60,645 bases of DNA, from the UHGV virus genome UHGV-0175782. One strand, given 5' to 3'. Both the position numbers and the translations under genes were made by a program. The first letter of the stretch is position 1, and each line of letters starts with the position of its first letter. This document shows positions 3,397-3,742 of the stretch, piece by piece. A model generated the notes under the pieces. It was not told the DNA's origin. It searched no databases and saw nothing but the letters and a program-made list of their open reading frames with translations. The DNA is from a virus.

Positions 3397-3488
3397 ACAA
3401 CGTTGAGAACACTGGCGTAACGGGGTCATATCCCAATCTACGAATAAATGTTGCGTTGCAGCGTGACAACCAGTGTTCTCAACATTGT
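3397..3488 (+). repeat. Structured element copy A: 18-bp inverted repeat flanking a conserved core (cgtaacggggtcatatcccaatctac), followed by ggtgaatgc
   Basis: Long perfect stem; core shared with copy B at 3695-3720; stems differ in sequence between copies but both pair. Confidence 0.5.
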
Positions 3489-3681
3489 GGTGAATGCACA
3501 GGCTGATGTGCCGCAACTACAGTAGTGCGCGCTTTGCGGGGCTTGCTACAACCCTGTGTCGGAGTTCAGCACCGACCATCACAGTTTGATTCTCTGGCAT
3601 GAGCATAACGCTGAAATAAGTCCAGTCTGGTGCGGCCCGATCACCCGCCGTTAGCTCCACGAAACGGAGCACGTAACAGGT

Positions 3682-3742
3682 AAGAGCATTCTCCTGTAAC
3701 GGGTTCATATCCCAATCTACAGGTCCACCAGGAATGCTCTTT
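3682..3742 (+). repeat. Structured element copy B: inverted repeat (aagagcattctcctg / caggaatgctctt) flanking the same conserved core (taacgggttcatatcccaatctac), followed by ggtgaatgc
   Basis: Same core and same downstream ggtgaATGc as copy A with a different but still complementary stem. Confidence 0.5.

Follow-up and report, generated by a model that had tools for sequence, protein, structure and literature searches.

An undescribed variant of phage leader RNA hairpins in the ban operon of bacteriophage P1

Described hairpin systems and the ban operon leader

Hairpins that are processed by RNase III are known from the early region of phage T7, from the N leader and the sib site of phage lambda, from the dicB-dicF operon and from the metY-nusA-infB leader. 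Phages P1 and P7 form the C4 antisense RNA, a small structured RNA which is cut from a longer operon transcript and acts via loop-to-target pairing within its own operon, while the thrS operator imitates the anticodon arm of tRNA-Thr. STnc100 (RF02076), a prophage small RNA (sRNA) family, and the related PasD are found close to the lysis genes in lambdoid late regions (bioRxiv 10.64898/2026.05.13.724894). Here we describe a family of long-stem hairpins in the leader of the ban operon of bacteriophage P1, starting from two copies, A and B, in the virus genome UHGV-0175782 (60,645 nucleotides, in the following termed the window). The window represents bacteriophage P1, its positions 2340-3900 being 99.9% identical to the P1 record AF234172, and both copies are located between tRNA-Thr and tciA in the untranslated, C1-repressed ban operon leader of approximately 1.5 kb. 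The positions of promoters, operator, plp and upl were derived from the annotation of AF234172 and mapped onto the window (Table 1).

The hairpins resemble the RNase III processing sites in forming long helices, mostly of at least 20 positions, between the functional units of a polycistronic transcript, and the P1 leader also holds tRNAs and a dicF-like RNA. They differ from these sites in that their feet have a common motif which can pair with either neighbour, in that their cargo is exchangeable and in that their cleavage is a prediction. With the C4 RNA they share the phage, the format of a small structured RNA and, as proposed here, the excision from a longer transcript, but there is no relation at the level of sequence or Rfam family, and no complementary target of the tip was identified, for which no direct search was made. 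As in the thrS operator, a hairpin loop and its closing pairs copy identity features of the anticodon arm of one tRNA, whereas the P1 tip is not located at a ribosome-binding site, has three closing pairs and is present in several, phage-borne copies. The likeness to STnc100 concerns the module following copy B, a sub-threshold match with the same GGUGAAU start and the same ...CCGGCACC end, and the lambdoid late regions that hold STnc100 and PasD also house a third class of the elements described here (type C). However, hairpins A and B match neither of the two sRNAs and are neighbours of such modules rather than members.

Copies A and B are presumed to be sense-strand RNA structures of the ban leader which function as processed, modular long-stem hairpins with a ligand-binding tip; we assign this reading a probability of about 0.55. 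The hairpins represent an undescribed variant of phage leader RNA hairpins: literature on the tRNAs of the P1 ban operon and on the transcriptome and small RNAs of P1 does not describe them, the P1 genome paper not being covered by this survey. Although P1 belongs to the most studied phages, the annotation of this stretch consists of two hypothetical genes on the minus strand. Our results point instead to a sense-strand array of structured RNA modules, which is common, in shuffled form, to P1-like and SSU5-like phage-plasmids, the N15-like PY54 and the leaders of lambdoid late regions, where STnc100 and Pas sRNAs are found as well. If this holds true, the annotation would have to be corrected, and a new RNA motif would be defined together with a model of its processing that can be tested.

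Structure and covariation of copies A and B and of type C

The preliminary description had drawn A and B as paralogous hairpins with a 25-nt core in common and with arms that are unrelated between the copies yet self-complementary in each. Both statements were confirmed, since the cores (3417-3441 in A, 3696-3720 in B) are identical in 24 of 25 positions, and the stems pair within but not between the copies. The 23 stem positions of copy A comprise 21 Watson-Crick pairs, one G-U pair and one C.A mismatch, a degree of pairing that was not attained once when the 3' arm was shuffled 100,000 times. RNA folding, suggested as a check, yielded -49.2 kcal/mol for copy A (z = -7.2) and -35.8 kcal/mol for copy B (z = -4.5), while the minus strand folded worse in both cases (-42.5 and -30.3 kcal/mol, respectively). 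With about two helical turns of mostly regular double strand, as expected of an RNase III substrate, the stems attain a length of at least 20 bp, pairing 22 of 23 positions in A, 19 of 20 in type C and nearly all in the sister hairpin E1 (Table 1); in copy B the gapless segment pairs 13 of 14 positions, and the full stem has about 21 pairs with two single-base interruptions.

Three details of the drawn structures had to be revised. In copy B the outer stem is AAGAGCAUUCU/GGAAUGCUCUU, lengthened by GG/CC and CGUAAC/GUUGCG, and CCTG at 3693-3696 pairs not with the distal CAGG as drawn but with the nearer CAGG at 3720-3723; the core is thus surrounded by an additional helix on the inside, P2 (CCUGUA/UACAGG). 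The core, although conserved as described, is not a plain loop either: it folds into GUA/UAC, an asymmetric internal loop (AC/AAUC) and three pairs, GGG/CCC, which close a 7-nt loop. Copy A has in addition a small hairpin, P3, that was missing from the drawing.

A scan of viral contigs with the core returned A-type and B-type elements as well as type C. As in copy A, type C consists of an outer helix P1, a core-bearing P2 and P3, followed by GGUGAAUGC, and the same three-way junction was predicted for all A and C variants, yet the outer stem of type C is entirely different (CUACAUUCGCCUGAGCAUCA/UGGUGCUCAGCCGAAUGUGG). The P2 helices likewise differ between the types, reading CUGAAUA/UAUUCAG in C and CGUA/UACG in A in the place of the B helix given above. 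Type C was detected in Yersinia phage PY54 between an adenine methylase gene and the lysis genes, in lambdoid prophage contigs right after the terminator behind the Q antiterminator gene and upstream of holin and endolysin, and also in Yersinia alsatica. In the lambdoid contigs the element begins a few bases after the U tract of the terminator. One prophage (viral contigs L065 and L114) carries two type C copies about 2.5 kb apart, one of which has CUC in place of CCC in the tip, so that a G-C pair is replaced by G-U.

Since the scan used the exact core pattern, it cannot itself show that the core is conserved. Type C copies were therefore also collected by their stem flanks alone, without requiring the core; these differ by single changes only, which are confined to the closing pairs or to loop position 38, and loop positions 1-6 (UUCAUA) are always kept. 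A scan with the core gave 61 matches in a whole-genome collection, mostly chance matches in unrelated taxa (the chance expectation was estimated at about 140), the real ones being only those in Yersinia alsatica and in a P1-like Escherichia contig. A metagenome scan revealed A and B types only and no new stem lineage. Several P1-like plasmids lack the core.

One core is carried by three paralogous stem types, each of which pairs with itself. Since whole-element alignment with MAFFT placed the three stem types out of register, the outer stems were assessed by their self versus cross complementarity. On the 5' side they have 10-13 of 27 positions in common; self pairing ranges from 13/14 to 22/23, while the best cross register yields 7-12 pairs, i.e. 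at most about 60-70%. Helix P2 covaries as well. When the 19 distinct tip regions were aligned without gaps, pair 7-33 proved to be A-U in eleven, C-G in six and U-A in one, and pair 8-32 to be A-U in ten, G-U in five and G-C in four. The covariation score of 0.23, compared to 0.14 in shuffles, was reached by none of 500 shuffles, and 83% of the P2 cells are paired in the true register as opposed to 28-52% in slid registers.

Within each type the changes in the stems are almost all one-sided and yield G-U pairs, as in the A variant GAGAGC/GUUUUC. Across the stems of the hairpin family, G-U combinations outnumber A-C combinations by 46 to 15 (p about 9e-5), which favours RNA of the sense strand. 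The counting rule is strand-symmetric and supersedes an earlier count of 56 to 8 that was biased by a hairpin finder accepting G-U. The earlier claim of a selected RNA structure is consistent with the covariation between the paralogous stem types, with the one-sided changes towards G-U and with the preference for the sense strand, and we consider it very probable that the elements form a selected RNA structure on this strand.

The hairpin family, its downstream modules and its presumed processing

With two elements the preliminary description had counted too few, since A and B belong to a family of many hairpins. In the window itself it includes E1 and E2, which have the foot of copy B (Table 1), and a total of 22 distinct long-stem hairpins with a common foot were listed from P1-like plasmids of E. 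fergusonii, E. marmotae, E. albertii and Leclercia and from two SSU5-like phage-plasmids of 110 kb. Their gapless stems extend over 14-30 positions, mostly at least 20, their cargo ranges from about 4 to 95 nt, and their tips vary. The ends follow the pattern 5'-CAC-N-(C/U)AAC... with ...GUUG(C/U)-N-GUG-3' and form the palindrome CACAACGTTGTG when joined. Several members start right at the CCA 3' end of a tRNA, among them E2 immediately behind tRNA-Thr. Compensatory change is found here too, as the base of E1, CACAAC..GUUGCG, reads CAUAAC..GUUACG in D6.

The tops of the hairpins appear as exchangeable units. At the position of copy B, D6 has a hairpin with a B-like foot and a different top of 66 nt without the core, directly behind an extra tRNA-Ser. 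In Ro157c2YLVW copy B (3060-3145) has undergone a precise 13-nt deletion of the tip (GGGTTCATATCCC) that leaves the remaining hairpin intact, and this phage has one additional hairpin with yet another tip. The tip model R1 detected no further copies within the 60-kb window and none in six plasmids without the core. Furthermore, in A/B hybrids (viral contigs L046, L052 and L019) the 5' arm of A is joined via one core to the 3' arm of B with a loss of 279 bp; their arms are unpaired, the fold amounts to about -25 to -28 kcal/mol, and recombination of one core with the other has evidently given rise to them.

Across the relatives the tRNAs of the island vary in a cassette-like manner, those for Asn, Tyr, Thr, Ser, Arg and Val and the CAU tRNA coming and going. 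Examples are a tRNA-Tyr between Asn and Thr, a tRNA-Ser(UGA) ahead of the hairpin at the B position, a tRNA-Arg(UCU) and a tRNA-Val. The SSU5-like 110-kb phage-plasmids and the P1-like ones have the same kind of tRNA island.

Such cassette-like variation would be explained by a role of the hairpins at the DNA level, either as cassette borders and recombination sites comparable to the attC sites of integrons or as inverted repeats resembling miniature inverted-repeat transposable elements. Like attC sites, they are imperfect palindromes of 70-140 nt with conserved AAC/GTT ends and variable middles which separate cassette-like units; the ends, (C/U)AAC and GUUG, together constitute the palindrome mentioned above, and the junctions fall at the foot motif. 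However, attC sites fold via their bottom strand, whereas the P1 hairpins fold better on the sense strand, show the excess of G-U over A-C and have an internal covariation that fits RNA. Of the attC consensus RYYYAAC/GTTRRRY they match the AAC/GTT part only, and no integron-type integrase (IntI) is annotated next to the island in P1. Inverted repeats bound by a transposase are conserved over their whole length, in contrast to the outer 6-9 bp that are conserved here. Taken together, a DNA-level role appears improbable.

It is somewhat less improbable, though still unlikely, that the hairpins are decaying leftovers of duplicated units of a tRNA and a trailing hairpin, the similarity of the cores being due to recent duplication and gene conversion. 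The hybrids demonstrate recombination between the cores of A and B, losses of the tip or of an entire copy occur, and the region is non-essential. The small hairpin directly before copy A (3377-3392) bears a weak likeness to the 3' end of tRNA-Thr, which 54 of 1000 shuffles equalled in local alignment. Together with the T-arm sequence of E2, this likeness would fit an origin of the elements from tRNA units. On the other hand, the same core is present in PY54 and in lambdoid prophages on a dissimilar stem and in a different genomic context, the stems stay paired via G-U transitions, and the type C copies found by their flanks keep the loop. Moreover, neutral decay would not maintain mostly at least 20 paired positions in 22 different hairpins.

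As to the origin of a transcript across the hairpins, no sigma-70-like promoter was predicted in positions 2250-5000, nor on either strand within the core, and the promoters P1ban and P2ban are its likely source. Given the annotation of AF234172, in which ban, 2.6 kb downstream, is controlled by the C1 operator, and the lack of a predicted internal promoter, the hairpins would most simply be part of the sense transcript running from Pban to ban. Neither A nor B is followed by a U tract as expected of an intrinsic terminator. On the sense strand of 2250-5000, terminator-like sites were called only where the dicF-like region ends, as two overlapping predictions (2520-2542, followed by a T run). 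There, an intrinsic-terminator-like hairpin with a run of seven T (2520-2549) closes the annotated region; with such a hairpin inside the ban leader, transcription must read through to reach the tRNAs, tciABC and ban.

In the favoured reading as processed leader hairpins, each member combines the conserved CAC/GUG foot, a covarying helix and an exchangeable apical cargo, and is placed directly behind a tRNA gene or, possibly, a decayed tRNA 3' end. The long helices would divide the polycistronic precursor, segment by segment, into closed domains, which a double-strand-specific nuclease of the RNase III type would cut out, thereby freeing the 3' ends of the tRNAs and the downstream mRNA. What is released from the top of the hairpin would be a small stable RNA with a factor-binding tip. 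In A, B and type C the cargo is one invariant device composed of the short covarying helix, the AC/AAUC loop and the GGG/CCC-closed UUCAUAU, and since this device is strictly conserved on unrelated stems it is presumably bound by a factor of the host or the phage. The analysis establishes the structure, strand, modularity and conservation of the family and the lack of a coding or SD role, whereas transcription from Pban, nuclease processing, release of a small RNA and ligand binding by the tip are inferred. The processing by a nuclease, taken for itself, is rated slightly below even odds.

Several observations weigh against this reading. The core is carried by only three independent stem lineages. 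It is absent from several P1-like plasmids, one phage has lost the tip of copy B, and A/B hybrids with unpaired arms occur, from which it follows that the tip is accessory. G-T is the least destabilising mismatch in single-stranded DNA, and a DNA hairpin of the same strand may thus tolerate the observed changes as well. RNase III processing is deduced only from how long the helices are and by analogy with other phage and operon transcripts. Finally, CRISPR interference with plp, upl, trnT and tciA showed these to be non-essential for plaque formation by P1vir in a laboratory host (PMC10695390).

The annotated minus-strand genes offer a different account, in which the region encodes Plp and Upl and the hairpins are incidental. 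These open reading frames (ORFs), which are annotated in AF234172 and comprise 125 and 63 codons, cover copy A completely and copy B in part. However, plp starts with TTG and runs antisense to tRNA-Thr, E2 and A, while the ATG of upl is the reverse complement of the CAU in the tip loop (3706-3708) and is deleted in Ro157c2YLVW. Frame-breaking 1-nt indels occur inside plp (variants L010 and L031) and the A/B hybrids show whole-ORF deletions. Neither product matched Pfam, most P1-like plasmids have no entry at this site in their gene tables, and the substitutions obey RNA-pairing rules. Both genes are probably spurious, and it is extremely improbable that they account for the region.

Hardly more credit can be given to the proposal that a Shine-Dalgarno (SD)-like GGUG and an AUG, sequestered by the 3' stem, control the translation of small downstream ORFs. 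The motif GGTGAATGC is indeed present after both copies (3489-3497 and 3750-3758), and the ATGs open ORFs of 31 codons (3494-3589) and 27 codons (3755-3838). Its role as ribosome-binding site and start could not be upheld, since the ATG is not conserved: D6 has GGTGGATTC in its place and many type C copies have GGTGAACGC, GGTGTATGC, GGTGACAGC or GGTGAAAGC, the variants at this site being GATTC, AACGC, TATGC, ACAGC and AAAGC. The spacing of 2 nt between GGUG and AUG is too short for an SD sequence. In the predicted folds GGUG is part of a junction motif, paired either with the CAC at its own 5' foot or with the CACC that ends the next module, and a Pfam search with the short sense ORFs after A and B gave no support for a protein family. 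This form of translational control is therefore regarded as very improbable.

The pairing of GGUG with the following module is predicted after copy B, where the 5' strand of the stem closing the module at 3745-3868 is at the same time the 3' foot of the hairpin. The equivalent modules in PY54 and D6 close alike. The 3' foot motif can pair with a 5' foot on either side, which explains why the foot is conserved while the remaining stem drifts. The module scored 33.4 bits against STnc100, below the gathering threshold of 47 (E = 6.6e-5). Its end, ...CCCGGCACC, matches CGGCACC of tRNA-Thr in 7 of 7 positions, which is not above chance as 451 of 1000 shuffles scored equally. The end brought to mind a possible derivation of prophage sRNAs of the STnc100/PasD type from tRNA genes, the match itself being at chance level.

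Following GGUGAAU (3493-3518 in the window) there is a small hairpin with the conserved loop AG(G/A)CUGAU and a covarying stem, GCAC/GUGC in P1, GCGC/GCGC in PY54 (3093-3110) and UCGC/GCGA in D6 (2468-2486). The module after A-type and C-type hairpins thus seems to possess a further conserved RNA element. A pseudoknot between the loop (UUCAU) and the tail GUGAA was rejected because the tail variants GUGAC, GUGUA and GUGGA are not compensated in the loop.

Resemblance of the tip to the initiator tRNA and further features of the leader

The tip ACGGG-UUCAUAU-CCCAA (GUCAUAU in A) agrees in 14 of 17 positions with the anticodon arm of E. coli K-12 metZ, UCGGG-CUCAUAA-CCCGA. Three consecutive G-C pairs, which at this place are the hallmark of the initiator tRNA, close the loop in A, B and C, and the 7-nt loop (U/G)UCAUAU provides U33, CAU at 34-36 and A37. 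Positions 33-37 are invariant in all 19 distinct variants, including the type C copies found by their flanks alone. The arm is incomplete in that three instead of five pairs precede the AC/AAUC loop, and U or G at position 32 and U at position 38 stand in place of C32 and A38.

Based on this likeness, the tip might mimic the anticodon arm of the initiator tRNA and serve the phage as a decoy for, or in competition for, a factor recognising this arm. Candidate targets would be PIN toxins of the VapC/MvpT type that cleave the anticodon loop of tRNA-fMet, methionyl-tRNA synthetase, or the 30S P site together with initiation factor 3. The setting in a tRNA island and the canonical T-arm sequence GGGUUCGAAUCCC in the tip of the sister hairpin E2 would agree with such a function, and dispensability in a laboratory host is typical of accessory anti-defence functions. 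Enteric VapC toxins cut tRNA-fMet in the anticodon stem-loop (PMC7180214), which makes a role as decoy conceivable. However, with three base pairs before the internal loop the stem falls short of the five of a tRNA, positions 32 and 38 deviate from tRNA-fMet, and the likeness was noticed after the fact, the chance of a match of this quality to some tRNA anticodon arm being estimated roughly at 1e-3 to 1e-2. In addition, the tip may be an inherited relic of a tRNA gene, and many related phages do without it. Functional mimicry of the initiator tRNA is considered unlikely, and the same applies to the decoy function in particular.

In its widest form this idea would imply that phages of enterobacteria (P1-like phages, the N15-like PY54 and lambdoid phages) carry a processed small RNA which, as an initiator-arm decoy, shields translation initiation from VapC/MvpT-type nucleases or otherwise manipulates factors that read the initiator tRNA. 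The decoy would then be shown on an exchangeable scaffold that also bears other look-alikes of tRNA fragments, such as the T-arm of E2. This version seems a long shot. If it were true, phages would possibly display mimics of tRNA fragments on a common scaffold, adding a new player to the tRNA-centred conflict between phages and defence systems or toxins.

Table 1. Positions in the window of the hairpins and of neighbouring features of the ban operon leader
Feature	Position	Strand	Remarks
P1ban and P2ban promoters, C1 operator	~2317-2362	+	AF234172 annotation, coordinates mapped
dicF-like region	~2457-2558		AF234172 annotation
Hairpin E1	2724-2818	+	stem base CACAACAGGUAAGGG/CCUUUCCUGUUGCG, tip differs; 27/29 paired, z = -5.5
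tRNA-Asn(GUU)	3015-3090	+	
tRNA-Thr(UGU)	3093-3168	+	
plp	3139-3516	-	annotated in AF234172; plp and upl antisense to tRNA-Thr, E2, A and half of B
upl	3517-3708	-	annotated in AF234172; see plp
Hairpin E2	3169-3256	+	same stem base as B; T-arm-like GGGUUCGAAUCCC in tip
Small hairpin	3377-3392	+	CCGG-AACCGUAA-CCGG; directly before copy A, likewise before type C in PY54
Copy A	3393-3492	+	three-way junction; tip covariance model R1, 55.7 bits
Copy A, helix P1	3393-3415/3470-3492	+	
Copy A, helix P2	3416-3419/3439-3442	+	
Copy A, helix P3	3449-3468	+	
Copy A, tip	3422-3434	+	GGG 3422-3424, loop GUCAUAU 3425-3431, CCC 3432-3434
Copy B	3672-3750	+	tip covariance model R1, 44.9 bits; no P3
Copy B, outer stem	3672-3692/3731-3750	+	two single-base interruptions
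Copy B, helix P2	3693-3698/3718-3723	+	
Copy B, tip	3701-3713	+	GGG 3701-3703, loop UUCAUAU 3704-3710, CCC 3711-3713
Module after B	3745-3868	+	closing stem GUUGCGGUG (3745-3753)/CACCGCAAC (3860-3868); fold -50.3 kcal/mol
tciA	3900-4325		followed by tciB and tciC
CAU tRNA	4600-4675		followed by ban

Searches with ARAGORN and the Rfam tRNA model called only the Asn, Thr and CAU tRNAs and none at E2, A or B. The CAU tRNA was assigned as tRNA-Met(CAU) by ARAGORN, as opposed to tRNA-Ile2 (ileX-like, lysidine-dependent) in the P1 record, and the GGG/CCC typical of the tip of the hairpins is absent from its anticodon arm (GGCGACUCAUAAUCGCA).

At permissive thresholds Rfam 15 gave no real match on A, B or type C in P1, PY54 and one lambdoid locus. 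A match of mir-142 over copy A (minus strand, 3382-3501; 27.6 bits versus a gathering threshold of 57, E = 0.01) was attributed to chance since the model describes a eukaryotic microRNA. According to the tip model, a third core-like sequence (ACGGGTATATCCCGT, 2871-2885), whose loop comprises 5 nt, does not belong to the family. It is part of a short hairpin upstream of tRNA-Asn (2868-2888, TTTACGGGTATATCCCGTCAT), which consists of a 5-bp stem and the 5-nt loop UAUAU and is kept in all P1 relatives examined.

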